Notes under the pieces: generated by a model
What the model saw: the letters and a program-made list of their open reading frames with translations, nothing else
Databases searched by the model: none
Told to the model about the DNA's origin: nothing
In this document: one piece after another, positions 7,600 to 63,838 of the stretch
Position numbering within the stretch: the first letter of the stretch is position 1
Layout of the letters: every line of letters starts with the position of its first letter
Assembly (NCBI GenBank): GCA_023245415.1
Contig: JAHFKJ010000004.1
Location: forward strand, 2,798 to 66,797
From: Candidatus Gottesmanbacteria bacterium
GTDB lineage: Bacteria > Patescibacteriota > Microgenomatia > UBA10105
DNA length: 64,000 bases
Reading direction: 5' to 3'
Made by a program: the position numbers and the translations under genes

Positions 7600-8097
7600 T
7601 TACTGATGAGAGTATTTGAATCTCCTAATAATCGATTTTTGGTCTGGAGGAAATTTCGCTACTAAATCTTTGATCGCACGTTTTTGAACAGGGTGAATAT
7701 AATTTGGATTTAACTCGTGAAGCGGAATGAGCACGAAATCCCGCTCATGTAAGCGTGAATGTGGAATTTCAAGACTTTCGTTGGCAACAACTAGATCGTC
7801 GTAAAAAAGTATATCGATATCTGTTTCGCGCGGTCCCCAGTGAAAACGTGGAGTTCTGCCAATTCTTTTCTCGATATCTTTGATAAAAACAAGTAGTTCA
7901 TCCGGCGTTAATTTGGTTTATCCCCAAACAACGGTATTGAGAAAATTAGCCTGATTGGTATATCCCACTGCTTTTGATTCATAGATGGAGGCTTTTTGCA
8001 GACGCGGCACTTTTTTAGAAAGAAGTTTGATTGCAGTTTTTATATACTTCTCTCTATTACCAACATTTGATCCCAAGCCTAAAAAAATACTCTTCAT
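7600..8097 (-). pseudogene. folK: folK, 6-hydroxymethyl-7,8-dihydropterin pyrophosphokinase (HPPK), interrupted by an in-frame TAA at 7918-7920
   Basis: ATG at 8097 overlaps the folP TGA as ATGA. N-terminal 59 codons MKSIFLGLGSNVGNREKY...ANFLNTVVWG, then TAA, then 105 in-frame codons TKLTPDELLVFIKDIEKRIGRTPRFHWGPRETDIDILFYDD...; together they align over the full HPPK length (E. coli ...YLNAAVALETSLAPEELL...RWGPRTLDLDIMLF). Confidence 0.6.
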
Positions 8098-8921
8098 ATC
8101 AATTCTTCAAAAACTGAAATAAACTTTTTTGTTTGCAACACATCATGAGTTCTTATGTACGTTGCTCCATTGATAAGGGCAATCGCCGTTTCTGCTAACG
8201 TTGTTTCAAGTCGCTCTAAAGGCGGCACGATTTCCGGCAAATTAAGTTTTACTTTCAAAATCATCCCCAAATGGCTTTTTCGAGAAAGTCCGACCATAAC
8301 CGGACAGTTTAATTTTTGGAATTGACGCAGTTCTTTTATGATGGTTATATTTTGTTGAACTGTTTTTCCAAACCCGATCCCCGGATCTAGAATAAACTGA
8401 CTTTTCTGAATGCCTTTTTTTACGCCTTGTGACATTTGACCCTGGAAAAATTCACCGATATCACCGACTACATTTTTATACTTAATTTCTCCCTTCTGCA
8501 TGGTCCGGGACTTACCTTTAATGTGGTAGATAATAAATTTGCAGTTAAACTTTTTGACAACATCTGCCATTTTAGGATCAAACAACAGCCCTCCTAAGCT
8601 ATTGACCATAGTTACCCCGCGTTCAAGTGCGTTTTGGGCAACAACTGCTTTATTGGTATCGACTGAGATAGTGACTGAGTTTCCGATTTCTTTTCTAATC
8701 GCGTCGATCACGGGAATTACTCGTACCAACTCTTCTTGGGCCGAAACTCCCGTTGAGCCCGGACGTGTCGAATCTCCACCGACATCAATAATGTCTGCCC
8801 CTTCACGCACCATCTCTTTCGCTTGAGCCACTGCTTTATCTATATTTTGATAGTAGATACCGCCATCAGAAAATGAATCGGGGGTAACATTCAAAATACC
8901 CATAAGAAATACTTTTTTCAT
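8094..8921 (-). CDS. folP: dihydropteroate synthase
   Basis: 275 aa; MKKVFLMGILNVTPDSFSDGG... is the classic DHPS N-terminus; pterin-binding domain throughout. Confidence 0.9.
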   Translation of the reverse strand: MKKVFLMGILNVTPDSFSDGGIYYQNIDKAVAQAKEMVREGADIIDVGGDSTRPGSTGVSAQEELVRVIPVIDAIRKEIGNSVTISVDTNKAVVAQNALERGVTMVNSLGGLLFDPKMADVVKKFNCKFIIYHIKGKSRTMQKGEIKYKNVVGDIGEFFQGQMSQGVKKGIQKSQFILDPGIGFGKTVQQNITIIKELRQFQKLNCPVMVGLSRKSHLGMILKVKLNLPEIVPPLERLETTLAETAIALINGATYIRTHDVLQTKKFISVFEELI

Positions 8922-9395: not shown

Positions 9396-9665
9396 TTAGG
9401 ACTTAGTTAGCTGAAGCTTTTCCATCAACCACATCCGGGCAAGCGTCGAAACATTGAGCCCTTTATTGCGAGCTACCTTTTCTAATCTATCCTTAATCTC
9501 CTTTTGGACACGCAAGATGAGCGTTTCGTCTCTGGGTTTGTCAAGTTCGAAAACGATATCAACTTCTTTTGTCTCATCTTCAAAGTCAGTAACATTATGG
9601 GTATCCCAAAACTTGGCTTCATCAGTGTAATTTTTAAATTTAGGAATTCTACTTTTCTTTTTCAT
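9396..9665 (-). CDS. brnA: BrnA-family antitoxin (RHH C-terminus)
   Basis: 89 aa; FWDTHNVTDFED motif typical of BrnA; C-terminal ribbon-helix-helix-like segment; located immediately downstream of brnT as in known BrnTA operons. Confidence 0.75.
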   Translation of the reverse strand: MKKKSRIPKFKNYTDEAKFWDTHNVTDFEDETKEVDIVFELDKPRDETLILRVQKEIKDRLEKVARNKGLNVSTLARMWLMEKLQLTKS

Positions 9666-9924
9666 TTAAATCTCTCCTTTCCTTTTTACTCGCATCTCTT
9701 GCGGTAACTAAATAATATTTCCCCATTGTTTCTTTTCTAAATACCATTGTAATAATCCTTGAACCAACTCTTCCCACTACTAGATATCTTCCTGTATGAG
9801 TTTTCCTATGATAAAGAAAGTCTTTTCCGATTTTCTCGACCTCAACTCTAGTAACATTATGTTTTTTAATATGCTCAAGATTAGTCTCATCAAAGACCAA
9901 AAAACGAATAACGATCTTAGTCAT
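9649..9924 (-). CDS. brnT: BrnT-family toxin (DUF497 ribonuclease toxin)
   Basis: 91 aa; FLVFDETNLEHIKKHNVTRVEVEKI matches the BrnT F-WD-x-K-N-x-KHGV-F-E motif; overlaps the downstream antitoxin gene by 17 nt. Confidence 0.75.
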   Translation of the reverse strand: MTKIVIRFLVFDETNLEHIKKHNVTRVEVEKIGKDFLYHRKTHTGRYLVVGRVGSRIITMVFRKETMGKYYLVTARDASKKERRDLNEKEK

Positions 9925-25754: not shown

Positions 25755-26426
25755 TCAGTATGATCCTATTTTGAAGGGTTCAGACGGTTCGTAAGTTGCA
25801 ATTATTACTCCGGTTGAGGTGATTTTTGTGTCAACCGGTTTAAAGCGCTGGGGACGAGTACCTTCCGCGAATAATTTTTTGCCGATGCCCAACGTCACAG
25901 GAAATGTCCAGATGTACATTCGATCTATTAAGTGGTGCCTAAGGAGCGTTTGTATAAGATTGCCGCTACCCCATACCCACAAGTCGGGACCTCCGCCAGC
26001 TGGCGGATTAATTTTCAGCTTTTTTATTTCCGAAACTACATCTCCGCCTGTCCTGAGCGACCCGCCCTGAGTCTTGTCGAAGGGAGTCGAAGGAGTGATA
26101 AGTATGGAATTGTTCCAAGAAAGTTTAAAAGGTTTATGTGAAACAACATACTTCTTCGTGCTATTCCACGGCTTAGCTATACGAGGTTCTTGTTTATCAG
26201 TTGGCCAATAACTCGCAAAAATTTCGTAGGTGCGTTTTCCCAAGAGTAGTTCAAAAGGAATAGCCATGAAGTCATCCAAAATCTTGTCCGCCACTTCGTC
26301 CCCGTAGTTCCCGCCTAACTGCCAACCTCCGTACTTAAATCCGTTTGAAGTATCTTCCTCCGGTCCTCCCGGAGCCTGCATAACCCCGTCAAGGGTAACA
26401 AATGTTGTTGTTATAATTTTTCTCAT
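25755..26426 (-). CDS. dihydrofolate reductase family protein (RibD C-terminal-like), paralog A
   Basis: MRKIITTTFVTLDGVMQAPGGPEEDTSNGFKYGGWQ... is the typical RibD_C/YwjB-type DHFR-like N-terminus; ~85% aa identity to 35093-35710. Confidence 0.8.
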   Translation of the reverse strand: MRKIITTTFVTLDGVMQAPGGPEEDTSNGFKYGGWQLGGNYGDEVADKILDDFMAIPFELLLGKRTYEIFASYWPTDKQEPRIAKPWNSTKKYVVSHKPFKLSWNNSILITPSTPFDKTQGGSLRTGGDVVSEIKKLKINPPAGGGPDLWVWGSGNLIQTLLRHHLIDRMYIWTFPVTLGIGKKLFAEGTRPQRFKPVDTKITSTGVIIATYEPSEPFKIGSY

Positions 26427-26487
26427 ATCAAAATATCTAACATTTAATGGCTCCACCTGATGGAAAATACCAGAACTTATTTCCTAA

Positions 26488-27045
26488 CTACTTAACCAAC
26501 CGAAAAGTCATGCTCGTTCTAACACGGGTAATTTCTTCAGTTTTAGTTCTTTCAAGCTTTATCTTATCTGTGTCTATATTTTCAAATAGTTTTAGTCCTT
26601 TTCCAAGAAGAACAGGCATAATATCTATCTGTAATTCATCACATAACCCCGCATTAAGGCATTGCTGAATCGTGCTTGCACCTATCACCTGAATATCTTT
26701 GTCACTTGCTGCTTTCTTTGCCTGAGAAATAGCACTCTCAATACCATCAGTTACAAATGTAAATGTTAGTTTGTCATTTCCTTTGGGATACTTTGCTGGA
26801 GGTGTATGTGTCAAGACAAAAATGGGAGCTTGAAATTCATAAGTCTCGTTAGCCCACGAAAATGGGTCTGCCATCTCATACACATATCTCCCCATAATAA
26901 CAGCTCTTGTGTTTTTAATCATTTCCTGAAAAGTTGGAGCATCATGGAGTTCACTAAAATCTGAATACAGCTTTTCTACGCTTCCTGCTGAATCGTTAAT
27001 GTATCCGTCCAAAGACATACTCATTCCAGCAATTATTTTCCCCAT
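26488..27045 (-). CDS. dihydrofolate reductase family protein (RibD C-terminal-like), paralog B
   Basis: MGKIIAGMSMSLDGYINDS...; ~93% identical to 36776-37336; start at Met 27045. Confidence 0.8.
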   Translation of the reverse strand: MGKIIAGMSMSLDGYINDSAGSVEKLYSDFSELHDAPTFQEMIKNTRAVIMGRYVYEMADPFSWANETYEFQAPIFVLTHTPPAKYPKGNDKLTFTFVTDGIESAISQAKKAASDKDIQVIGASTIQQCLNAGLCDELQIDIMPVLLGKGLKLFENIDTDKIKLERTKTEEITRVRTSMTFRLVK

Positions 27046-27079
27046 GATGAAATTATAACAGAAGGCTCGAACAGTCCAA

Positions 27080-27310
27080 TTACTTATCAAAAACTATTTT
27101 TCCGTTTTTACATATAACTTGTATCCCTGAATTTGTTTGAAAACGTTCCTTGTTTTTCAACTCGATGAACCCTTTACCATCATCATAAAGGCACCCATTA
27201 CCTATTAACCAGTTATTCCCTAAAAAAACCAATACAAGAAATGCTACAAAGAATAATACAAGTAATGTACTTAGTATTAGAAGTACATGTTTTCGATTTT
27301 TTTTCACCAC
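27080..27310 (-). CDS. small hypothetical membrane protein
   Basis: 76 aa, one TM; the gene sits between ~30-bp direct repeats (27050-27085 and 27311-27342) that occur only once upstream of the paralogous locus at 37321. Confidence 0.4.
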   Translation of the reverse strand: MVKKNRKHVLLILSTLLVLFFVAFLVLVFLGNNWLIGNGCLYDDGKGFIELKNKERFQTNSGIQVICKNGKIVFDK

Positions 27311-27738
27311 CTAATTATAGCAGAGGTTCGAACAGTCCAACAAAGGGTATAAAAAAAATGAGGCTAATTTTATTGGCTCGAAAAATAGACCGCTTCCCGA
27401 GAAACAGACTGGATTACGGAATAAGAATTTCCTGAATTTACAATGAAGTAAGCACAAGTTAAAGTTAAGACAATTTACTTTTGAACAAATTAGTTACCAA
27501 AGAAACTTCGAAAATATCAGGCATTTAATTTTAAATAGAAAGAATGTGTTAAATCGGTAGGTGTCTAGCTATTTCACCCGGGGGGTGGGATTACACCAGT
27601 GTCAATATTCCTAGACATCTCCTAAATGTCAATGGGTGAAAATCACTATATCGCTTTAGATTTTATAAAAAGTCAAGATTAAAGTCTCAAACACTCGCAC
27701 TCATCCTAGAACTCATAATTACTATATAATAAGTTTAT

Positions 27739-27996
27739 ATGTCAACAACTGATGACACATTTTCAATTGGGACTAAAGTTAAAATTCTCAGTGATCCAGA
27801 GTCTGGACCTGGTCCATGGCCAGCTCAGCCTACGGGAACTATCATTTCCGACGCAGAAATAGTAGATGGAAGAAATGGACCTCTAAATACATACTGGGTT
27901 CAATTTGATGAACCTCAATATGATACCGACAGAAGTGGTCCTTATTCAAAATCTCAAGTATTAGAAAAGTATCTTATGGTCCAGGGACGGTCCTAA
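27739..27996 (+). CDS. hypothetical protein; C-terminus (QGRS*) encoded by repeat copy A
   Basis: 85 aa ORF; last 4 codons lie inside the 55-bp repeat. Confidence 0.4.
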   Translation: MSTTDDTFSIGTKVKILSDPESGPGPWPAQPTGTIISDAEIVDGRNGPLNTYWVQFDEPQYDTDRSGPYSKSQVLEKYLMVQGRS

Positions 27997-28039
27997 AACT
28001 AACCGTCACAACAATCTAAAAATAGCATAGTTTTATTGG
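27984..28039 (+). repeat. 55-bp island repeat, copy A (gggacggtcctaaaactaaccgtcacaacaatctaaaaatagcatagttttattgg)
   Basis: Direct sequence match to copies B-E; core GGACGGTCC palindrome plus GACGGT/ACCGTC inverted arms. Confidence 0.9.
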
Positions 28040-28112
28040 ATCCCCCGGACGGTTGCTACTCGGACTTTAAGGGAATACCTGTTTACTTGGCAAGCCACTG
28101 TATAATACCTTC

Positions 28113-28865
28113 ATGTGTGGATTTTACGCCAGAGCAGAACTTACTCCTACTGACTTTCAAAAACTCTATGGAGTGGACGATATTGATGATGCGCTACTTT
28201 CTCCGCGGTACAATATCCGACCCGGAACAGTAAATGTCGTGGTCACCCGCAACTCACCGAATAAGGCACAAGGGATGCTCTGGTCTTATTTACCCGATTG
28301 GCCAGGATTTCCGGAAAGCAGAGCAGTTATTAACGCACGAATTGAAAGTATAAAGGAAGGCAAGTCTTTCTTTAAAAAAGCGTTTCTATCACAAAGGTGT
28401 ATTGTCCCTGCGTCTCAATGGGTGGAGTGGGCACCAGTGTCAGGAATCAAAATACCTCATGCATTTAAATTGAAGGGTAGGGATAATTTTTCTTTTGCTG
28501 GGCTGTGGAGTGAATATACCAATCGGAATGGCAAACGAATTAAGGGCTACTGCATTATCACTACCGAACCCAATCCCCTCGCATCCAAAGTTCATAATCG
28601 ACAACCCGCAATTTTAAGAAAAAGTGATGAGAATACATGGCTTGATCCCGATGAAAAAGATATGGTCACTCTTTTGAAATGCCTCGACGTTTACCCGCAA
28701 TCTGACATGGAAGCATACCCAATAGTCAGAGATTTGAGCGAAAATAGTCCAGATATTCTAAAACCTATTACTAAAAATCAGCTCGAAACTCAAATAGCTA
28801 AAAAGCCAAAACTTGCAAAACGATTGAAAACTAAGATACCTTTTGGACAAGTACAATTGGTTTAA
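28113..28865 (+). CDS. SOS-response-associated peptidase (SRAP/YedK/HMCES family)
   Basis: MCG start with catalytic Cys2; RYNIRPGT, AGLWSEY, IITTEPN...HNRQPAIL motifs. Confidence 0.8.
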   Translation: MCGFYARAELTPTDFQKLYGVDDIDDALLSPRYNIRPGTVNVVVTRNSPNKAQGMLWSYLPDWPGFPESRAVINARIESIKEGKSFFKKAFLSQRCIVPASQWVEWAPVSGIKIPHAFKLKGRDNFSFAGLWSEYTNRNGKRIKGYCIITTEPNPLASKVHNRQPAILRKSDENTWLDPDEKDMVTLLKCLDVYPQSDMEAYPIVRDLSENSPDILKPITKNQLETQIAKKPKLAKRLKTKIPFGQVQLV

Positions 28866-29123
28866 TTTTAAAAATCTCTTGACTTGACTCCCCAATATTA
28901 GCGTACTTCGAACGTATTTTACTGAAGGTGAAAAGGATTTACAACCGATTTTTGTTTAGTCGGTCTGTACGCAATGGATGATAGTTCGAACTAATTATAC
29001 ACAATCGTAGTTATATTGCGGGGGTTATGGTTCGATTATCCTCACCATCCTGAGCTTGTCTAAGGATTTACCCTGAACGAAGCTGAACGACACGCCAGTC
29101 CACCTCTGGCGGAAAAATAGATC

Positions 29124-29573
29124 CTAATTTTCTTTTACTTGTACGATACGTTCATAGAAAACTTTCGGTTCAATAATCTGTAACCGCTTAAGTGGAGGAT
29201 GACTTCTGAGAATCAAAAGATCTTTATCCCCGGTAACCAGATAGTCTGCCTTACCACCAAGTGCACAAGTAATTATTTTGGCATCTTTCGGATCACGGAT
29301 TGCTACAGGTGAATGTGGAATAGGTGTAATCATTTTAGCTTTGCGTTTAAATAAATTGAGAAATGCGGCGATTTTTTTGTCGGTAAGGTGGTACTTCGCA
29401 GTTAATTTTGTACGTTTAAGTACCTCTTCAACTTCTATAAATAAACCCTGAGTGCTTATGATTAAAAAGTTGTTTTCCCGCCACAATTCAAGAATTAAAT
29501 AGGGGAATCCACGCTCAAGGATGATACCACTGACGAAAACGTTAGTATCAATCGTTACTCTGAGCTTTGTCAT
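29124..29573 (-). CDS. PIN-domain toxin (VapC-like)
   Basis: 149 aa; TIDTNVFVSG N-terminal acidic PIN motif; overlaps upstream antitoxin gene. Confidence 0.7.
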   Translation of the reverse strand: MTKLRVTIDTNVFVSGIILERGFPYLILELWRENNFLIISTQGLFIEVEEVLKRTKLTAKYHLTDKKIAAFLNLFKRKAKMITPIPHSPVAIRDPKDAKIITCALGGKADYLVTGDKDLLILRSHPPLKRLQIIEPKVFYERIVQVKEN

Positions 29574-29865
29574 ATAACTCTTGTCGAACTTGTTCCGTAA
29601 TCTCAGTTATTTCTTTATACACTTCGTCTGGATTTTTATCTCGGTTTTTCTTGCGGATGGCATCAATCATAGTAAAAGCTGCTTGTTCTTGCTGTAGTTC
29701 GTTGTATTTGTCCAACATCTCCAAACTGATAATCGCCGCTTGTGGAGCATTATTGGTCATCACGACTACTGGCCGTTTGGTCTTTTTGACCCGAGCAAAA
29801 ACTTTTTTATACCCGCGCTGAATTTCGCGGGCAGAAATAGTGGATGGAAAAGTGTATGTCAACAT
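29548..29865 (-). CDS. Phd/YefM-type antitoxin
   Basis: 105 aa; KRPVVVMTNNAPQAAIISLEMLDKYNEL matches Phd/YefM fold pattern; translationally coupled to PIN gene. Confidence 0.6.
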   Translation of the reverse strand: MLTYTFPSTISAREIQRGYKKVFARVKKTKRPVVVMTNNAPQAAIISLEMLDKYNELQQEQAAFTMIDAIRKKNRDKNPDEVYKEITEITEQVRQELYDKAQSND

Positions 29866-30028
29866 ACATACCAGTATAGAAGAATTTTAACTGTATGTCA
29901 AGTTGATGACAAATTTTCTAAAAATGCAGCTGGTTATTTTGAGGGTTATACATAATATACCTGCTGAATATATTTGAGACATTGAGCTTAATAGAATGTA
30001 ACAATAGTACATTGGGGTTTATCCCATA

Positions 30029-30754
30029 TCAGTTGTTAGCCGAGCTTGTAAACTCTAAACCTGATATTCCTCTATACCGTATACGTTCTGGGAGACTGTT
30101 GATTCCTCGCGGATATTTCAGCATAACGCGTTTATACGATGGTGCTAAAATTGTCTCCGATTGTTGTGCAACAGCATGATGGAGAAAATGTGCTTCGGTT
30201 GCCTCAGCCCTTGGGTTAATGTTCGGCTGATCGACAGTCAACCTGCCATTTGCCATGTCCCGTACATGAGAACAAATCCAGGCCATTGTGGCTAGTGCCT
30301 CAATCGGTTTGGTTTGTGCTTTAACAATAAATTCAGGCGGTATGAGTACGTACGCTACTTCTTCCACCTGTTGTTTGCCTTTAGTCGCCGCAAATAAGAC
30401 GTGTGGTTCGTCATGTTTGCTTTGCATTGTGAGAGCTAATTGGGGAGGCATACCTAGCTGAATTGCTGCAGCAATCATATTATCGGTAAGCGCCGTAGCT
30501 ACCCGGAGCTGATTCATTATCCACCAAGCGGTTGTTCCAACTTCCTGCATATACTGATCATGCCCTCTGTTGGCAAAATAAGCTACCCCTGCTGTGAAGA
30601 AATCACTGGTTGCTTGGGCTACCTTTTCCCAAGGAGCATCTCTCACATGTTCTATTGTGTTACCAACCGTATAGTGGGTTTTCACCACTACATTAAATAC
30701 ATCTACAAGACGCTCACTTGAAGGCAAATATGAATTTCCATCTTCAACAGGCAT
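30029..30754 (-). CDS. hypothetical protein (GC-rich, probably foreign)
   Basis: 241 aa ORF; local GC ~50% versus ~36% surroundings. Confidence 0.45.
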   Translation of the reverse strand: MPVEDGNSYLPSSERLVDVFNVVVKTHYTVGNTIEHVRDAPWEKVAQATSDFFTAGVAYFANRGHDQYMQEVGTTAWWIMNQLRVATALTDNMIAAAIQLGMPPQLALTMQSKHDEPHVLFAATKGKQQVEEVAYVLIPPEFIVKAQTKPIEALATMAWICSHVRDMANGRLTVDQPNINPRAEATEAHFLHHAVAQQSETILAPSYKRVMLKYPRGINSLPERIRYRGISGLEFTSSANN

Positions 30755-31285
30755 ATATCAATAGTTGTTAAAACTTATGAATCAGTAGAATGTGGAAGGA
30801 TAACAAAAGTTTCTAGGTTTGTCAATATATAGGTTATTATATAATTAACATTAAACTGTAATTATGAGGCTAATTTAAGGATTAATATGTCGATTAATAT
30901 TTTCTTATAGGTCGTCATTATAGAAGTAACATTCTATCTTAGAACTTACATTCAAACTATTCTGGCTTAAGTAATTTCTGATCGTCGTTATACGGATCGT
31001 TAACACGTGTACTGATCCTTTATGCCTGCATGTTTGATACGTCATAATGCTTTAAGAGTGAAAAAAGTGTGGCAATCTGAGTGATTTCCATTCTGGGATT
31101 GGTATGTGCCTGCACCTCAGTAGATTCTTCCGCTCCCCCGTACAATTGCTACTCTGACATTGAGGGAACATCTGTTTGACTCTCTTAACATGAAAGTATA
31201 TCAGAAGTCTTACTCTAATTTGAAGTAGAAGTGATTTAAATTGTTGCAAATATCTAACTCAGCCTAGTGGAGGATGTTCGGAATT

Positions 31286-31873
31286 TTAGCTTTTAGCAAT
31301 TGAGCTCATCCATTTGACAAATCGCTGTTCCTGGTTCAAATTACCTATCCAAGGTACTTTTAAAACTCTCGGATCGTTGAATGCTGATCCCCCTCTAAAT
31401 CCATTTACCTGTTCTGATACAGCAATAAAACCATGCTTATATCCATGGGGGCGTAAACGATAATAATCTACTCGAGCGGCTTGTCCTATACTTAAGGTTG
31501 GCTCATTTGAATACTTTTTAGTGGGAATGTGTACTACTCCTACAGCCTGACTAAATGAATCGGTAAATCCAATAGTATTTCTATCGAGGTTCACTAGTAC
31601 GAGCGCGTTATGATTTTCAAACACCTGTTGAATTACTCGAGTATTTGGAACATATTTGACAATATCCCATTCCCTTAGTTTACCAAGCACTGTCAGAGTA
31701 TTATGTTGTTGTCCCATTGTCTCATCCGCTCGATCAAACCCAAATGATTCCAAATAGTCTGAAATTTGTTCCTCAAAATTTAATTCGGCAAAATCAACCT
31801 CAACACCAGTTTGACCTTGTGGTGGCGAAATTTCTGTTCCGTCTTCACTTAGCATGGTTAAATTGCACCACAC
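31286..31873 (-). CDS. hypothetical protein (GC-rich, probably foreign)
   Basis: 195 aa ORF with elevated GC, adjacent to previous. Confidence 0.45.
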   Translation of the reverse strand: MWCNLTMLSEDGTEISPPQGQTGVEVDFAELNFEEQISDYLESFGFDRADETMGQQHNTLTVLGKLREWDIVKYVPNTRVIQQVFENHNALVLVNLDRNTIGFTDSFSQAVGVVHIPTKKYSNEPTLSIGQAARVDYYRLRPHGYKHGFIAVSEQVNGFRGGSAFNDPRVLKVPWIGNLNQEQRFVKWMSSIAKS

Positions 31874-32048
31874 TTCAGTTTGAGTTAGTTTTGATGCTAC
31901 TTTGCACCCCTGGTAGGATTCTCTTCGGCTATTTCAGCTCTCATTGAACTTGCCGAAGTGCTCCCCCTAAAGGACTTTCTGCAACTACAAGTTAGAGTTT
32001 GATTTAAGTTTAAACTAAAATCAAAATGGTCTTTGAAACGGTTCAACT

Positions 32049-33239
32049 TCAGCCAGCCTTAGTCTGATTAAATCTCTTAAAAGCGAACAAAATCATTAGT
32101 AATAATCCAAGAATTAAGGCATTAAACTGCAAAGCTATCCTAATTCCAAAACGGTCGCTTATCATACCCAAAAACGGAATAAATAAGGCATAAATCAATC
32201 TTCTGACTAAACTTTGAAACGACAAAATAGTCGCAGCCCTTTCTGGGGGAATTAAAGTTAAAGTCTTTCCACTTATTAAAGTTTGGTTTACAACAACAAT
32301 CATACTAAATATTGAAAACAATGGAATAACAAAGATACTTGGAAACGCCCCCAAAATAAACATTGAAAATATAGCAAGTAAACCAATAACAACAAAAGCT
32401 TTATCTTTTAACCACAAATCAATCTTATAAGTTAAAAATTTTGAACAATAAGCGGAAAACAAACTGAAAGAGGCAAAAATAAAACCAAAATATACAATCG
32501 GAACTTTAAGCATCTGGAAATAGGGTTGGGGAAACCAATAAGCCGCAAATACCAAAGAGTTAATTGTAGCAAAATATAAAGTGAGCCAGAGAACTTTGCT
32601 ATTTGATTTTACTATCTGAACACTTTCTTTGATTATTCGAAGATAATTTGTTTTTTCTTCCCTTGGCAATTCATTCTCGGTATTTGAAAACGAGAAACCA
32701 ACTATTAATGCTATAAAAGTTGAAATGCCTGTTGCAATAAGAGTTAAACCCAACGAGACTGAACCAATAAATCCACCACCGATATTCCCCAGCGCTTGAA
32801 AGATTTGACTTAGCGCTCTAACTCCACCCTCTGTTTTATTGAAATCCTTATCTTTACCAAGAGATTTTAGGGTTTGATGGATAAAAGCCCTATCTGCACC
32901 AGAAATAAAAGCCATACCTGCAGCTATAGTCAATTCTCCAATAGCAAACTGCCAAAAATGGGAACTTAAACCATACCAAAATAGACCAATACTAAAAAAT
33001 AGTGAGCCGAAAATCAGACTTATCTTTTTACCGAAATAGTCAGCAAAACCGCCTGTTGGCAATTCCAATATCAATGCTCCAATAGCATAAATTGATTGCA
33101 AAGTAAAAATTTGGGTCATATTCAAACCCTTTGACTGCCAAAAAAGAACAATAACTGGAAAAAAGAAGGCAAGGCTGTTAAACGCCTCAAACAAGTAGTA
33201 TTTCTTTATGTTACCCTCCAAACGAGCGTCATTGTCCAT
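32049..33239 (-). CDS. MFS transporter
   Basis: 396 aa, 12 predicted TM segments, MFS-like loop motifs. Confidence 0.8.
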   Translation of the reverse strand: MDNDARLEGNIKKYYLFEAFNSLAFFFPVIVLFWQSKGLNMTQIFTLQSIYAIGALILELPTGGFADYFGKKISLIFGSLFFSIGLFWYGLSSHFWQFAIGELTIAAGMAFISGADRAFIHQTLKSLGKDKDFNKTEGGVRALSQIFQALGNIGGGFIGSVSLGLTLIATGISTFIALIVGFSFSNTENELPREEKTNYLRIIKESVQIVKSNSKVLWLTLYFATINSLVFAAYWFPQPYFQMLKVPIVYFGFIFASFSLFSAYCSKFLTYKIDLWLKDKAFVVIGLLAIFSMFILGAFPSIFVIPLFSIFSMIVVVNQTLISGKTLTLIPPERAATILSFQSLVRRLIYALFIPFLGMISDRFGIRIALQFNALILGLLLMILFAFKRFNQTKAG

Positions 33240-33516
33240 ACTTCTAATTATAACTTAATGTTAAATAATGAAAAAATAGAGATATAACGAAGTTTTCCTG
33301 AAAAAGTAATGTCTATGATATATGAAGAAAAACTTGCAAACGTAGTCTTCAAACTAAAAAAAAGAAAGAAAAATTACAAGAAAGGGTTACAAATTATCCA
33401 AACGGTTTTTGAAACCTTTGACATTCAACCGGTATACGCCTAAAGATTGGTTACCGAATTAACCAACTGTATAGGCACTTTATGCTAGAATGCCCACAGC
33501 TTAATATAATCACTTT

Positions 33517-34107
33517 ATGTCAATGTCAAAACTTATTTACTCGCTAATTACCTCTCTTGATGGCTATATGGCGCCGGCGGACGAAAGTGGAACATGGGCT
33601 AAGCCAAACAAGGAAGTGGACGCTTTTATGGGTGACTTAAAACGACCAATCGGCACCTATCCATATGGACGAAAAATGTACGAGACTTTGGTCGATTGGA
33701 GTACTATGAATTTAGAGAATGAACCAGGTGTTACAGGAGACCACGTTCAAACTTGGAAGACAGCCGACAAAATAGTTTACTCGAAAACGCTCGATAAAGT
33801 ATCGAGTTCTAAAACGTTTATAAAAACGAACTTTGAGCCAGAAGATATTAAACGACGAAAACAAAGCTCGACTAGCGATCTAAGCATAGGTGGTCCTCAT
33901 ATTGCTGCTGAGGCTATAAAAGCTGGCTTTATTGACGAATATCACCAATTTATAGCACCTGTCACAATAGGGTCAGGTAATGCTTGGTTACCTGATAATG
34001 TTCGCGTAAACCTTGAACTAGTTAACCAAAAACGATTCCCGAACGGCTTTATATATCTTCGCTATCAAGTCATATACAATCATATACAAGGACGGTCCTC
34101 AAACTAG
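33517..34107 (+). CDS. dihydrofolate reductase family protein (RibD C-terminal-like), paralog C; C-terminus (QGRSSN*) encoded by repeat copy B
   Basis: LIYSLITSLDGYMAP typical RibD_C start; last 6 codons inside the 55-bp repeat. Confidence 0.75.
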   Translation: MSMSKLIYSLITSLDGYMAPADESGTWAKPNKEVDAFMGDLKRPIGTYPYGRKMYETLVDWSTMNLENEPGVTGDHVQTWKTADKIVYSKTLDKVSSSKTFIKTNFEPEDIKRRKQSSTSDLSIGGPHIAAEAIKAGFIDEYHQFIAPVTIGSGNAWLPDNVRVNLELVNQKRFPNGFIYLRYQVIYNHIQGRSSN

Positions 34108-34145
34108 TTACCACAACAACCTAAACAAAGCATAGTTTTATTAAC
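34089..34145 (+). repeat. 55-bp island repeat, copy B
   Basis: aggacggtcctcaaactagttaccacaacaacctaaacaaagcatagttttatt. Confidence 0.9.
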
Positions 34146-34211
34146 TGCCTCTTTAGTTGATATGTTCAGAAACAGAAAGATTGAAATTTGTATTGCAAAC
34201 CAAGATATAAC

Positions 34212-34598
34212 CTAATCTAATTGAACAATTTGTATAAGGTTACCGCATGTATCATTAAATACAGCGATCGTTGATCCCGTAACTTTTGTTGGTTGCATCG
34301 TAAACCCCACACCCAGCTCTTTTAGTCTTTCATATTCTTTTTGAATATCTTCAACAAAAAATTGTGTAGCTGGTATACCTTGCGTCAAAATAGATTCTTG
34401 AAATTGCTTTGCCGCTGGATTTACGTTTGGCTCCAGAAGAAGCTCGGTTCCATTTTGTTCGTCAGGTGAGACAACCGTTAACCATCTGTAGTCCCCAACA
34501 GATATATCCTTTTTTTTCACAAAACCTAAAATCTCTGTATAAAATTTCAGAGCTTTCTCTTGTTCGTTTACAAATACACTCGTTATCTTTATTTTCAC
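34212..34598 (-). CDS. VOC-family (glyoxalase/bleomycin-resistance fold) protein
   Basis: 128 aa; MKIKITSVFVNEQEKALKFYTEILGF typical VOC N-terminus. Confidence 0.75.
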   Translation of the reverse strand: MKIKITSVFVNEQEKALKFYTEILGFVKKKDISVGDYRWLTVVSPDEQNGTELLLEPNVNPAAKQFQESILTQGIPATQFFVEDIQKEYERLKELGVGFTMQPTKVTGSTIAVFNDTCGNLIQIVQLD

Positions 34599-34702
34599 AC
34601 AATGATTATATCATGACGTTCCGCTGCGCGTGATGAAAAATATGAGTACATATTTTATTTCAAATTGACTTCAACTTCATACGTATGTATAATACATTTA
34701 TA

Positions 34703-34948
34703 ATGAAAACAATGACATGTAAACAACTATATGGACCATGTGATTCCCTGATCCATGGCGAAACCGCAGAAGAAATGATGGAGAATAGTAAAAAACATGC
34801 AATGGATATGGTTGCCAAAGGAGACCAGGTACATGGTAACGCAATTAAGGAAATGGGTGAAATGCACAAAAACATGGATGAAGCAGCGGTGAAACAGTGG
34901 ATGGAAAAGTTTCAAAAAGACTTCGACGCAATACCAGAAGACAAATAA
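34703..34948 (+). CDS. DUF1059-like small protein
   Basis: MKTMTCKQLYGPCDSLIHGETAEEMMENSKKH... matches the DUF1059 pattern; start at second Met 34703. Confidence 0.55.
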   Translation: MKTMTCKQLYGPCDSLIHGETAEEMMENSKKHAMDMVAKGDQVHGNAIKEMGEMHKNMDEAAVKQWMEKFQKDFDAIPEDK

Positions 34949-35092
34949 CTTTCTTCGCTCAACTACCACAAGTTACCGAACAATTCCTAATTTCTATTTA
35001 CCTCTTTTTTAGGTTCTCATGTCCAACTCTTGGTATTGAATTTTCAAGATTAAAATATCTGGCTCCACTTGGTGGAGGAAGTAACTTCAGAA

Positions 35093-35710
35093 TTATCCTA
35101 TTTTGATGGGTTCTGACGGTTCGTATGTTGCAATTATTACTCCGGTTGAGGTGATTTTTGTGTCAACCGCTTTAAACAGCTGCGGCTGTGTGCCGTTTGC
35201 GAACAATTTCTTGCCGGTGCCCAACGTCACCGGAAATGTCCAGATGTGCATTCGATCTATCAGATGATGTTGTAGGAGCGTTTGTATAAGATTGCCACTA
35301 CCCCATACCCAGAGATCAGGACCTGTGCCAGCTGGCGGATTAGTTTTCAGCTTTTTTATTTCCGCCACTATATCTCCCGTAATGAGCACTGAATTGTTCC
35401 AAGAAAGTTTCAAGGGTTTATGTGAAACAACGTACTTGCGCGTAGCGTTCCACGGTTTGGCTATGTGAGGTGCTTGTGTGTCAGTCGGCCAATAACCAGC
35501 AAAGATTTCGTAGGTGCGCCTTCCCAAGAGCAGCTCAAAAGGAGTGGTCATAAAATCATTTATTATCTTGCTCGACACTTCGTCTTCATAGTCTCCGCCT
35601 AACTGCCAACCTCCGTATGTAAAACCGTTTGATGTATCTTCCTGGGGTCCTCCCGGAGCTTGCATCACGCCGTCAAGAGTCATGAATGTCGTAGTGACGA
35701 TCTTTCTCAT
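35093..35710 (-). CDS. dihydrofolate reductase family protein (RibD C-terminal-like), paralog A'
   Basis: MRKIVTTTFMTLDGVMQAPGGPQEDTSNGFTYGGWQ; ~88% nt identity to 25755-26426, lacking a 42-bp insert. Confidence 0.8.
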   Translation of the reverse strand: MRKIVTTTFMTLDGVMQAPGGPQEDTSNGFTYGGWQLGGDYEDEVSSKIINDFMTTPFELLLGRRTYEIFAGYWPTDTQAPHIAKPWNATRKYVVSHKPLKLSWNNSVLITGDIVAEIKKLKTNPPAGTGPDLWVWGSGNLIQTLLQHHLIDRMHIWTFPVTLGTGKKLFANGTQPQLFKAVDTKITSTGVIIATYEPSEPIKIG

Positions 35711-35913
35711 ATGGACTTTTTTAGTCTACCAAATCTTAAATCAAAATACCTAACCTTTGATGGCTCGGCCTGACGGGTCAAAATAATTCTAGTTTTCATC
35801 AGTTAATTATACCAAAGTTCGAACGCTATTAAGGACGCACAATTGACCGCTAAAAAGCTCTGTGATAATCTTACTTACTATCAAATAGATAGTAAAATCA
35901 CCAGAACAATAAT

Positions 35914-36243
35914 ATGGGCGACCGCACTTTATATCACAACAAATATCAAAAAAAATACGGACTGAAAAAAAATGGCAGATTATTCTTTATGAAATGTGTT
36001 GGAGTTGCTTTCATTATTGTCGGTATTCTATCATTTGCTTTAGTGGTTTTGGTGGGTAGTCTATTTTTCCCAATCGGTCCTGATGGATTATCGCCACAAG
36101 ATGCTGTGATACAAAGGATAATGAGCAATTTGGAAATACTCAGTGGAGTTAGCTTCGTCGCTGGATTTTCCATCACCTGTCTGGGTTTTATTGTAGGTGT
36201 TTATAGATCTTCTTTAAAGTCAACGGGCCACTCCACCGGCTGA
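35914..36243 (+). CDS. hypothetical membrane protein
   Basis: 109 aa, 2 TM; followed 14 nt later by repeat copy C. Confidence 0.4.
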   Translation: MGDRTLYHNKYQKKYGLKKNGRLFFMKCVGVAFIIVGILSFALVVLVGSLFFPIGPDGLSPQDAVIQRIMSNLEILSGVSFVAGFSITCLGFIVGVYRSSLKSTGHSTG

Positions 36244-36257
36244 AGCGGGTGGTCTAG

Positions 36258-36310
36258 GGACGGTCCTCAAACTAACCTTTACAACAATCTAAATAGCATA
36301 ATTCTATTGG
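36258..36310 (+). repeat. 55-bp island repeat, copy C
   Basis: gggacggtcctcaaactaacctttacaacaatctaaatagcataattctattgg. Confidence 0.9.
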
Positions 36311-36407
36311 CTTCCCCACTTTGCAGATGTGTTCAGGTACCGAGAAATAGAGTTTAGAATGCGACCCGCTTATGCAACTATTTGACAATTTGAAGCTCCC
36401 CAAGAAT

Positions 36408-36779
36408 CTATGAACCCCGAAAAATCTTCTCCATCTTCCTACCCTTTGCCAACTCGTCCACCAGCTTATCCAGATACCGAACCTTCTGCGTCAACGGATT
36501 CTCGATTTCTTCTATGCGATATCCACAAATTACTCCGGTGATGAGACGTGCATTGGGGTTAAGCGTTGCCTGTTGGAAGAATCTTTCAAAAGTAGCATTT
36601 TCTTTTATTAGTTCCCGCAGATTCTTGTTGTCGAAGCCAGTTAGCCACTCTATTACTTGATTCAATTCTTCTTTTGTTCTCCCTTTCTTCTCCACCTTTA
36701 CGACATACATGGGATAGACCGAGGCGATGGTCATATTTGCGATCCGTTGATTGTGCGTGTTGGAATTATTCATATTCAT
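36408..36779 (-). CDS. DUF2200-like protein
   Basis: 123 aa; VYPMYVVKVEKKGRTKEELNQVIEWLTGF pattern. Confidence 0.55.
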   Translation of the reverse strand: MNMNNSNTHNQRIANMTIASVYPMYVVKVEKKGRTKEELNQVIEWLTGFDNKNLRELIKENATFERFFQQATLNPNARLITGVICGYRIEEIENPLTQKVRYLDKLVDELAKGRKMEKIFRGS

Positions 36780-37336
36780 TTAACCAACCTAAAAGTCATA
36801 CTTGTTCTAACAGGGGTAGTTTCTTCTATTTTAGTTCTTTCAAGCTTTATCTTATCTGTGTCTATATTTTCAAATAGTTTTAGTCCTTTTCCAAGAAGAA
36901 CAGGCATAATATCTATCTGTAATTCATCACATAACCCCGCATTGAGGCATTGCTGAACGGTGCTTGCGCCGCCTATTACCTGAACATCTTTGTCACTCGC
37001 TGTTTTCTTTGCCTGAGAAATAGCACTCTCAATACCATCAGTTACAAAGGTGAAGGTAAGTCTGTCATTTCCTTTGGGATACTTTGCTGGAGGTGTATGT
37101 GTCAAGACAAAAATGGGAGTTTGAAATTCATAAGTCTCGTTAGCCCACATAAATGGGTCTGCCATCTCATACACATGTCTTCCCATAATAGCAGCGCCTG
37201 TGTTTTTAATCATTTCCTGAAAAGTTGGAGCATCATGTAGTTCACTAAAATCTGAATAAAGCTTTTCTACACTTCCTTTGGAATCGTTAATGTATCCATC
37301 CAAAGACATACTCATTCCAGCAATTACTTTTCCCAT
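36776..37336 (-). CDS. dihydrofolate reductase family protein (RibD C-terminal-like), paralog B'
   Basis: MGKVIAGMSMSLDGYINDS...; ~93% identical to paralog B, with a near-identical 3' flank. Confidence 0.8.
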   Translation of the reverse strand: MGKVIAGMSMSLDGYINDSKGSVEKLYSDFSELHDAPTFQEMIKNTGAAIMGRHVYEMADPFMWANETYEFQTPIFVLTHTPPAKYPKGNDRLTFTFVTDGIESAISQAKKTASDKDVQVIGGASTVQQCLNAGLCDELQIDIMPVLLGKGLKLFENIDTDKIKLERTKIEETTPVRTSMTFRLVK

Positions 37337-37424
37337 GATGAAATTATAACAGAAGTTTCGAACGATCCAAAAAAGGGTATTAAAAAATGAGACTAATTAT
37401 ATTGGCTTCTCGTCGTAGAACAAA

Positions 37425-45790: not shown

Positions 45791-46249
45791 TTACAATGAT
45801 TCATTCACTTCTTTAACCTGTTGTTTCGTAATCCAACCTTTTCCTTTACACGTTAAACAAATAGCTACCATGCCGGAGGTACGTACTCCACTACGGGTAA
45901 AAAACGATTTAGTCGGGGCTAATCTTGTGCCCTGACATATTGGACAAACCATTGCATCTGGAGGTTTTTGAGACAAATCCTTCTTGAAGGAAGAAAAGTA
46001 TTCCTGAAGCATCATTCGTAACGTTGTTTTTCCTTTGGTGGTTTTAAAATATTCTTCTCTGCGTTTCGCATCCTTTTCATTGCGATACGCTTCATAATGA
46101 ATGAGCTCAAAAGGAATGAAGGGCTTTGTAGAAAATTCGGAACCAGAATTGTGCTCTTGTACACGTCTTTTTAGGTCTGAAGTAAAACCGACGTAAATAA
46201 ATTCTTTCGGTATACTACTTAGAATATACACGTAATAGAAATTCGACAT
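45791..46249 (-). CDS. GIY-YIG nuclease family protein with C-terminal zinc-ribbon (CPICQ...CLTCKGKG)
   Basis: MSNFYYVYILSS...YVGFTSDLKRRVQEHN; start at Met 46249 (the table start 46279 would run into the tRNA 3' flank); lies immediately 3' of tRNA-Asn. Confidence 0.75.
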   Translation of the reverse strand: MSNFYYVYILSSIPKEFIYVGFTSDLKRRVQEHNSGSEFSTKPFIPFELIHYEAYRNEKDAKRREEYFKTTKGKTTLRMMLQEYFSSFKKDLSQKPPDAMVCPICQGTRLAPTKSFFTRSGVRTSGMVAICLTCKGKGWITKQQVKEVNESL

Positions 46250-46339
46250 GAGTAATAGTGGAGACGTGCCAGACGGCACATCCCTGCCTCACCATTCTTG
46301 GCGAAGCGATGAACCTAAGCGCCAGCGAATGGTTCGTTG

Positions 46340-63152: not shown

Positions 63153-63455
63153 ATGAATTATATTGCATCCATTACTTCCCAAGGCCAACTCACGATCCCT
63201 AAACCGCTACGGGATGCATTTGGAATTTCCGGCCGGGCCAAAGTATACATTACCCAAAAAGGCGACAAAATAGAACTTAAACCATATAAGCCACGTGATA
63301 TTCTCTCTCTTTATGGAATTTTGAAAGAAAATCCAGTAGTTAAAGCCAATAAAGGTAAACCGCTTCAACAAATAATCGATGAAGAAAGTACGGCATTTGA
63401 GAAGGCAATCGTTGATAATGTTGTAGAAGAAATGGGTCTGCCGCCGCGAAAATGA
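63153..63455 (+). CDS. AbrB/MazE/SpoVT-type antitoxin (VapB-like)
   Basis: QGQLTIPKPLRDAFGISGRAKVYI swapped-hairpin motif; 4-nt overlap with the PIN gene. Confidence 0.65.
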   Translation: MNYIASITSQGQLTIPKPLRDAFGISGRAKVYITQKGDKIELKPYKPRDILSLYGILKENPVVKANKGKPLQQIIDEESTAFEKAIVDNVVEEMGLPPRK

Positions 63456-63838
63456 TCATTTACACACTTGATACCAACTGTCTGCTTCGCTATTTGACGC
63501 GCGACATTCCCACCCAAGCCAAAAAAGTCCGTAATTTGATGTCTACGGCCAAGAAACATCAGGTGCGTCTGTCTGTATGCGAACCAATTTTCATTGAAAC
63601 GGCAGTCATGCTGAAGAATTACTTTAAATACGACCGCGACAAAGTATTCTTACTACTATCTGACCTGTTGGCTGCACCAGAATTAGAAATTGAAAATCGT
63701 GACCGGCTCGCCAAAGCCACTGTCTTATATCACGAAACCTCGGTTGATTTTACCGACTGCATTCTCTTGATTTATGCTCAAACTCAGCGTTATAAGGTTT
63801 TTACTTTTGACTCAAAACTCGCCCAGATTACTGATTAA
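63452..63838 (+). CDS. vapC: PIN-domain toxin VapC
   Basis: MIIYTLDTNCLLRYL N-terminal Asp; conserved distal acidic residues (FDSKL). Confidence 0.75.
   Translation: MIIYTLDTNCLLRYLTRDIPTQAKKVRNLMSTAKKHQVRLSVCEPIFIETAVMLKNYFKYDRDKVFLLLSDLLAAPELEIENRDRLAKATVLYHETSVDFTDCILLIYAQTQRYKVFTFDSKLAQITD

Follow-up and report, generated by a model that had tools for sequence, protein, structure and literature searches.

Five RibD_C reductase genes within 12 kb

The stretch of DNA analysed here, 64,000 nucleotides of contig JAHFKJ010000004.1 from Candidatus Gottesmanbacteria bacterium (hereafter the window), harbours a cluster of five genes, designated A, B, C, A' and B', that encode stand-alone reductases of the RibD_C family (Table 1). 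We confirmed the five open reading frames (ORFs) at the positions given in a preliminary description of the locus, which had been made from the sequence alone. All five products exceeded the gathering threshold of the Pfam RibD_C model (PF01872; 24.1 bits, 197 positions), and the matches covered the model from positions 1-2 to 192-196. The ORFs are intact and single-domain, and the cluster spans ~12 kb. In the case of gene A, the mechanical ORF (25755-26456, minus strand) extends up to a GTG at 26456, while the gene call in the European Nucleotide Archive (ENA) corresponds to a protein of 223 aa; the ATG at 26426 is likely to be the true start. A search of the window with all five proteins (tblastn) detected no additional copies or fragments, and a repeat finder together with BLAST of the window recovered the two paralogous pairs A/A' and B/B' and nothing else of length.

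Table 1 Positions of the reductase genes and associated features in the window
Feature	Position	Strand	Description
A	25755-26426	-	A-type stand-alone RibD_C reductase, 223 aa; Pfam RibD_C 62.5 bits
B	26488-27045	-	B-type stand-alone RibD_C reductase, 185 aa; Pfam RibD_C 55.5 bits
C	33517-34107	+	C-type (YyaP-like) stand-alone RibD_C reductase, 196 aa; Pfam RibD_C 46.3 bits
A'	35093-35710	-	A-type stand-alone RibD_C reductase, 205 aa; Pfam RibD_C 67.6 bits
B'	36776-37336	-	B-type stand-alone RibD_C reductase, 186 aa; Pfam RibD_C 66.6 bits
In-frame insertion in A	about 26046-26093	-	48 nt, 16 aa, 66% GC; encodes PSTPFDKTQGGSLRTG
Candidate conversion tract	26541-26655 (B), 36829-36943 (B')	-	115 nt, identical in B and B'
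Variable patch of B'	37087-37271	-	Codons 22-85, 185 nt
Promoter-like element of B	27052-27079	-	TTGGAC-GTTCGA-N9-TATAAT; ends 6 nt before ATG
orf76	27080-27310	-	Small hydrophobic ORF, no family; missing from contig L089
Second element copy with upstream element U	27314-27379 (element 27314-27341)	-	Upstream of orf76; matches 37342-37407
Promoter-like element of B' with U'	37343-37407 (element 37343-37370)	-	Upstream of B'; ends 6 nt before ATG
Promoter-like element of A'	35806-35824	-	GTTCGAAC-N5-TATAAT; ~95 nt upstream of A'
DUF2200 gene	36408-36779	-	Pfam DUF2200 175.9 bits; start overlaps B' stop (ATGA)
orf109	35914-36243	+	Predicted membrane protein, 109 aa, no family; between DUF2200 and A' on the opposite strand
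Copy of dispersed ~55-nt repeat	36255-36310	+	Invariant core GGACGGTCCTMAAACTA
folP	8094-8921		~17 kb and ~20 genes from the nearest RibD_C gene
folK (HPPK)	7600-8097	-	Directly downstream of folP; in-frame TAA at codon 60 (..VVWG-stop-TKLTP..)

The motifs of the family were read from the translations. The (S/T)LDG motif takes the form TLDGVMQ in A and A', SLDGYIN in B and B', and SLDGYMA in C. The glycine-rich dinucleotide-binding loop is WGSGNL in A and A', VIGAST in B, VIGGAST in B' and IGGPHI in C. At about codon 122, B' carries one extra glycine codon (GGC) within this loop, giving VIGGAST where B and the family consensus have VIGAST.

The amino acid identity between A-type, B-type and C-type proteins is 20-27%, and the three types have different nearest solved structures. 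A' aligned with PDB entry 8JSV over residues 1-205 and 1-193, respectively, with 50% identity (E 4.5e-54; the corresponding value for A was 1.1e-48). This entry is LiDHFRL from Leptospira interrogans (8JSV/8JSY/8JT0), and A and A' are members of the same subfamily, with ~50% identity from end to end, a common length class and a shared N-terminal MRKI..TLDGVMQAPGGPEEDTS. LiDHFRL does not have the 16-aa loop insertion found in A, and B, B' and C fall outside its subfamily. A structure-and-activity study of LiDHFRL has been published (Chandit et al. 2025, Int J Biol Macromol 298:139931, cited in PMC12751051). The B-type proteins are nearest to 3KGY (B', E 1e-24) and C is nearest to Bacillus subtilis YyaP (2GD9, E 4e-14). 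The five genes match these two entries as well as 3JTW, 3KY8 and 2XW7, which, like 3KGY, are labelled putative dihydrofolate reductases (DHFRs); all five entries are without an assigned substrate and thus provide fold information only. Because of the low identity between types and their different nearest structures, the five genes can be divided on sequence grounds into three anciently diverged subfamilies, with the A-type and B-type each present twice, and do not represent one amplified gene. The earlier designation as five paralogs therefore holds for membership in the RibD_C family, but not in the sense of copies of a single gene.

Divergence and origin of the two gene pairs

Global alignment gave a nucleotide identity of 93.2% for B/B' (92% at the amino acid level), in agreement with the preliminary description, and 83.6% for A/A', lower than the ~88% proposed there. 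The 3' flanks of B and B' had also been described as ~97% identical over ~150 bp. This figure fits the 3' part of the coding sequence, where alignment positions 380-530 are 96.7% identical and include a 115-nt identical block, whereas identity past the stop codons is 37%, corresponding to no similarity. The insertion that had been noticed in A is present and in frame, but has a length of 48 nt instead of 42. Neither A' nor 58 of 60 homologues have the inserted sequence PSTPFDKTQGGSLRTG, and no second copy of the 48 nt was found in the window. One homologue (P0028) carries a shorter PST..SLRTG version at the same site, though it groups with A' and not with A; the loop may represent either a recurrent insertion site or the trace of a mosaic gene. 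Internal direct repeats are present in the 48 nt, CCTTCGAC and CTCAGG each occurring twice.

Rates of substitution were estimated by the method of Nei and Gojobori. The values for A/A' were dS 0.70, dN 0.094 and omega 0.135, and those for B/B' were dS 0.21, dN 0.039 and omega 0.181. Purifying selection acts on both pairs, and A, A', B and B' are therefore probably all functional. In terms of dS, the ages of the two pairs differ threefold, which bears out the uneven divergence recognized at the outset.

We then consider the origin of each pair. In a neighbour-joining tree, B and B' were sisters in 82% of bootstraps. A and A' were sisters in only 7%; A' grouped with P0028 in 74% and A with P0053 in 59%, both of these being metagenomic proteins from other contigs. 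GC contents at third codon positions (GC3) of A, A' and the DUF2200 gene located next to B' were 0.45, 0.47 and 0.52, the top three of the 38 window genes (mean 0.36), and those of B and B' (0.30 and 0.29) were in the normal range for the window. Homologues of the A-type have a scattered distribution (Patescibacteria, Gammaproteobacteria, Spirochaetes, Actinobacteria, Chloroflexi and archaea) and are also known from megaplasmids. B-type homologues at 80-90% identity come mostly from Patescibacteria, across which the B-type is unusually conserved (mean column identity 78%). Among named relatives, those nearest to C belong to Actinobacteria and Chloroflexi (~52%). Stand-alone RibD_C proteins are widespread, as the A-type and B-type searches each returned at least ~8,000 significant matches. 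Judging from tree and divergence, B/B' is a young duplication specific to the lineage, and A/A' is either an old duplication or the result of two separate arrivals, with A and A' probably foreign in origin. We thus read the B-type as resident and recently duplicated, and the A-type (with DUF2200) and the C-type as having presumably come by transfer.

Strain mixing, repeat collapse or a mis-join during assembly might have produced the second copy or made the copies differ, and contigs of the same population were therefore compared. An 18.4-kb contig in the MEGAHIT assembly ERZ27276474 from ENA carries both copies 9-10 kb apart, with unique intervening genes that are alike (99.9% to the window), and a 2-kb contig in ERZ27280021 carries B'-DUF2200-orf109-A'; identities of the contigs from these two assemblies to the window were 99.1-99.9%. 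The copies differ from one another by 7% (B/B') and 16% (A/A'), and their neighbours differ too. Taking into account these differences, the distinct neighbours and the presence of both copies on one contig elsewhere, collapse or mis-joining of the copies is very unlikely. The intactness of both copies and the purifying selection acting on them also speak against an artefact. In its favour, the ENA assemblies may share a study or even reads with the window, as another contig of the sample shows no mismatch over 12.6 kb; contig L090 is looped and has two alleles of B codons 18-22; and contig L088 has private changes predominantly towards G and a GGG insertion, a signature of errors in two-colour sequencing chemistry. 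On balance we regard the duplication as real and an artefact as extremely improbable.

The preliminary description had assumed a segmental duplication, and the genes are indeed collinear, B being followed by A and B' by A', all on the minus strand. One duplication of a B-A unit together with its promoter, after which conversion kept B and B' alike while A and A' drifted, would explain this common order and orientation; copy 2 would later have gained DUF2200 and orf109, unless copy 1 lost them, and orf76 would be an insertion in copy 1. Consistent with this, the sequences upstream of B and B' are homologous, a further ~40 nt can be aligned upstream of A and A', dS of B/B' is one third of that of A/A', and the B' alleles of the population are mosaic. 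However, a single recent duplication does not fit A/A', the two being so rarely recovered as sisters, each preferring a different metagenomic protein. Alignable flanking DNA is confined to ~70 nt upstream of B/B' and the ~40 nt upstream of A/A', and outside the genes the copies have only short promoter-like elements in common. The spacer between B and A is 31 nt from the B stop to the GTG at 26456 and 61 nt to the likely ATG, and that between B' and A' is 1065 nt with two genes inside. A further contig, L089, carries a single B-type gene with 90% nucleotide identity to both B and B' and was used as the outgroup. Upstream of this gene and in its 3' flank, L089 resembles copy 1 without orf76; no A-type gene lies directly downstream of the B gene, the next called gene being DUF1398. 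The collinear order thus stands, and descent of both pairs from one event appears rather unlikely.

The conversion part of this scenario was examined with the 115-nt block identical in B and B'. A run of this length appeared in 0.27% of shuffles of the 40 B/B' mismatches (P = 0.003). Only 7 differences from the outgroup were found in the block where 12-13 are expected, indicating that the block evolves slowly. With this rate taken into account, the chance of finding zero B/B' differences in it is ~0.01, for a tract chosen after viewing the data. Moreover, identity between B and B' is rather even (83-100% in 60-nt windows) and not bimodal, which argues against conversion acting on old DNA. The gene conversion proposed earlier accordingly retains the tract as its evidence and can be called suggestive; the gap in dS may reflect either conversion or two separate duplication or acquisition events.

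A second kind of pattern was observed when the window was compared with other contigs of the population, in which differences are concentrated in short patches of the B-type genes. In the comparison with L001, 10 of 13 differences over 13.7 kb are within the B' patch (Table 1), and in L088 all 15 substitutions and a 3-nt insertion are found there. All eight changed bases of L090 lie inside 13 nt of B (26980-26992, codons 18-22). Outside these patches, identity between assemblies is 99.98-100%. With the ancestral state taken from B and the outgroup, each B' allele has private changes, many of them synonymous. Around half of the variant states in the B' patch equal B and around half match neither B nor B', indicating that the local paralogue is not the sole donor. 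The patch looks as if short tracts had been brought in from diverged B-type alleles, and not like simple conversion from B to B', although some of the signal may be noise of the assembly around paralogous sequence. A diversity-generating retroelement (DGR) was considered and rejected: the Pfam survey of the window detected no RVT domain, the changes are mostly synonymous and not adenine-specific, and the only sequence similar to the patch in the DGR template check was B itself. The AlphaFold2 models built from 40-sequence alignments (pLDDT 61.8 for A' and 47.5 for B') were too poor for mapping the variable residues.

These patches raise the idea that the B-type is a hot spot of diversification driven by recombination, in which tracts (B' codons 22-85 and B codons 18-22) are swapped among paralogues and co-resident strains, providing a shifting detoxification repertoire under one GTTCGAAC operator. 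We consider this highly doubtful. If true, the exchanged tracts would cover the Met20-like loop and the substrate-binding helix of the B-type enzymes, and an episymbiotic bacterium of the candidate phyla radiation (CPR) would possess a changing set of detoxifying reductases.

Promoter-like elements and neighbouring genes

The sequence GTTCGA-N6-12-TATAAT occurs exactly four times in the 64 kb, against an expectation of 0.15, and always on the minus strand. The four sites (spacing N7-9, with TTGGAC further upstream) precede orf76, B, A' and B', and the element is also present upstream of the single B gene in the outgroup. The B and B' mRNAs may be leaderless or nearly so (Table 1), and the half-palindrome GTTCGAAC could act as an operator. 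Gene A has no copy of its own and starts 61 nt past the B stop; from these positions, the likely transcription units are B-A, B'-DUF2200 and A'. The two element copies that flank orf76 suggest that it was inserted upstream of B, within the promoter region, and that the promoter was duplicated in the process. A consensus scan of the window for promoters and terminators gave sites no more numerous than expected by chance.

Two genes and a 55-bp repeat had been reported between A' and B', and all three were confirmed. Of the two genes, orf109 is also called in the ENA contigs. The DUF2200 gene is probably co-translated with B', and its product is homologous to the uncharacterised protein SP1917 of Streptococcus pneumoniae (PDB 3C9P). 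Genes of the DUF2200 family recur beside A-type or B-type RibD_C genes in unrelated genomes (loci L006, L018 and L084), which suggests a functional partnership between the two families.

The ~55-nt repeat is present in five copies in the window, all on the plus strand, starting at 27984, 34089, 36257, 39275 and 45621. Two reading frames, orf85 (..QGRS-stop) and C (..QGRSSN-stop), take their final codons and stop from it; in C, the last ~10 codons thus form a C-terminal extension that is missing in homologues. Contigs of the same population contain the copy located between orf109 and DUF2200 in a form with mismatches; in the loci of other genomes, exact matching to the consensus copy gave no hits. 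The repeat can form a weak 6-bp hairpin without covariation. We considered that it might mark gene cassettes, but rejected this since inspection by eye revealed no integron attC-like ends and the hairpin is the only, and weak, structure.

The window is chromosomal, as rpoD, dnaG and greA are present. The region of ~7-46 kb is rich in accessory genes, including MacB/HlyD efflux components, regulators of the MarR, ArsR and MerR families, an FMN reductase, a metallo-beta-lactamase-fold protein, SRAP, a transporter of the MFS family, VOC/glyoxalase, DUF1801 and DUF2200. Three toxin-antitoxin modules (9396-9924, BrnT/CopG-type; 29124-29865, PIN/Phd; 63452-63838, PIN/MazE-like) lie in or beside this stretch, as do SRAP (28113-28865) and a GIY-YIG protein (45791-46279). 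Neither a tRNA nor an Rfam family was found in the window.

We examined how RibD_C genes are arranged elsewhere. In the 80 genomes that were retrieved with A', the A-type gene mostly stands alone. Two or more RibD_C genes within 10 kb were present at 13 of the 80 loci, with a maximum of four in Melioribacter, and DUF2200 or VOC genes recur as neighbours. On a 196-kb Patescibacteria contig, an A-type gene, an ORF, DUF2200, a further gene and a B-type gene are grouped, and in a Levyibacteriota genome a RibD_C gene of another type is directly upstream of a B-type gene. Clustering of diverged RibD_C genes and the association of A-type, DUF2200 and B-type genes are thus recurrent. In the clusters of Melioribacter roseus (L036, four genes in ~4 kb) and of Streptomyces/Embleya replicons, diverged genes also stand side by side, often near VOC/glyoxalase genes. 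The present locus differs from these in its small-genome CPR-type host, its two within-subfamily pairs and its common promoter-like element, and its five copies in 12 kb are at the upper end among the loci sampled. The cluster is a real but fairly ordinary gene-family expansion, of a known sort of clustering.

Possible functions and the folate question

Concerning function, we compared the five proteins with characterised members of the fold. The reductase domain of RibD/RibG and the archaeal and actinobacterial pyrimidine reductases have the Pfam family, the SLDG motif and the glycine-rich NADPH loop in common with the five genes; they differ in having a deaminase domain or a partner gene, which is missing here. 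The Pfam survey of the window detected no deaminase or rib genes and, apart from folP and folK, no folate genes nearby. With the NCBIfam models TIGR00326, TIGR00227 and NF010663/4 the best scores were 15.5-21.9 bits against cut-offs of 150-226, A, A' and B giving no match. As for canonical FolA/Dfr, fold and clan are the same and Foldseek returned DHFRs among its distant matches, with 12-17% identity in structural alignments made with the A' model (pLDDT 61.8). None of the five proteins matched Pfam DHFR_1 at E <= 0.01, RibD_C alone being reported.

A further characterised relative is SacH (7XH2/7XH4), which confers self-resistance to safracin. Like the B-type proteins, it is a stand-alone protein of ~180 aa with the DHFR fold, but its similarity to B' is only distant (7XH2, E 1.6e-9, 41 bits), and for A' it is a structural neighbour only (19-20% identity with the model of pLDDT 61.8). 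Moreover, unlike the situation for SacH, no biosynthetic gene cluster is present at this locus. SacH reduces the hemiaminal/iminium warhead of safracin-type antibiotics with NAD(P)H, contacts its substrate through Glu27, Tyr38, Trp57, Tyr68 and Thr136, and is closer to RibD than to FolA (PMC10031226). Like SacH, eight homologues from other bacteria reduce hemiaminal antibiotics but are inactive on dihydrofolate (PMC10031226). By analogy, the enzymes of the window most likely reduce non-folate small molecules with NAD(P)H and have a role in detoxification, an assignment in which our confidence is low to moderate.

The preliminary description had placed the cluster next to a folate pathway with a stop codon in folK. 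The in-frame TAA of folK is present, and the frame is otherwise intact. ENA contig L092, free of mismatches over 12.6 kb, has this TAA too. We asked whether the codon might be read under an alternative genetic code and rejected this, as TAA, TAG and TGA all end normal genes. The folK gene is probably either split or a pseudogene of recent origin. The proximity, on the other hand, did not hold: folP and folK are far from the nearest reductase gene (Table 1) and have no element in common with the cluster. Together with the absence of DHFR_1 matches, the RibD cut-offs that were not reached and the inactivity of SacH-type relatives on dihydrofolate, this leaves a folate link of the cluster unsupported.

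The main rival to a non-folate function is nonetheless that the paralogues replace a missing folA as alternative DHFRs, their expansion being tied to the decay of folP-folK. The B-type would be the best candidate. In addition to the DHFR fold itself, B' weakly matches a true DHFR, that of Thermotoga (1CZ3, E 1.9e-4), and its segments IMGRHVYE and VIGGA are similar to IMGRHTWE and VIGGG in Escherichia coli DHFR. Rv2671 of Mycobacterium tuberculosis, a RibD_C protein, is said to have weak DHFR activity. The strong conservation of the B-type in Patescibacteria would fit such a role, and folA was not detected across the surveyed stretch, namely the window and the ~5-6 kb of ENA contig sequence flanking it on each side. 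Against it, besides the missing DHFR_1 matches and the eight stand-alone homologues that, with SacH, failed to reduce dihydrofolate (PMC10031226), the folate genes are 17 kb away with no operon or regulatory element in common, five genes from three subfamilies far exceed what one housekeeping step would need, and the A-type and C-type look horizontally acquired. We consider replacement of folA to be unlikely.

We favour, with moderate confidence, the following reading as a whole. A chromosomal accessory neighbourhood would have gathered five intact stand-alone RibD_C (DHFR-fold) reductase genes from three ancient subfamilies, with B/B' a young lineage-specific duplication, A/A' old paralogues or separate acquisitions, and C an independent third member. 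The A-type and B-type units would be driven by copies of one promoter-like element, with the half-palindrome GTTCGA(AC) between -35 and -10. The enzymes would reduce small molecules other than folate or riboflavin precursors, with SacH-like reductive detoxification as the model, in a setting of small stress or detoxification genes such as VOC/glyoxalase, DUF1801, DUF2200 and an MFS transporter. Patchy recombination in the B-type genes of the population would account for the uneven divergence.

Several points weigh against this reading. Detoxification is an analogy with one distant characterised relative, whose match to B' amounts to 41 bits. The B-type motifs IMGRHVYE and VIGGA and the 78% conservation also fit a housekeeping role, such as that of an alternative DHFR. 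The matching order and orientation of B and A in both copies would be reached more easily by duplication of one pair than by independent events. The mosaic patch of B' may in part be an artefact of assembly or sequencing, and the promoter-like element is not a good sigma-70 site in the consensus scan.

To our knowledge, stand-alone RibD_C proteins, annotated as the dihydrofolate reductase family, lack an assigned function in almost every case and routinely carry an incorrect DHFR label. The established picture is unchanged by this locus, and the duplication itself is ordinary genome evolution. For annotation, RibD_C genes of this sort are unfit as evidence of folate metabolism. The most interesting threads are the common promoter-like element, the recurrent DUF2200 partner and the patch of between-assembly differences in B'. 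The A-type, B-type and C-type reductases and DUF2200 together provide a compact candidate set for biochemistry. Five intact copies under purifying selection, with a common element and a DUF2200 partner, in a genome-reduced host suggest that these enzymes are useful to such cells.

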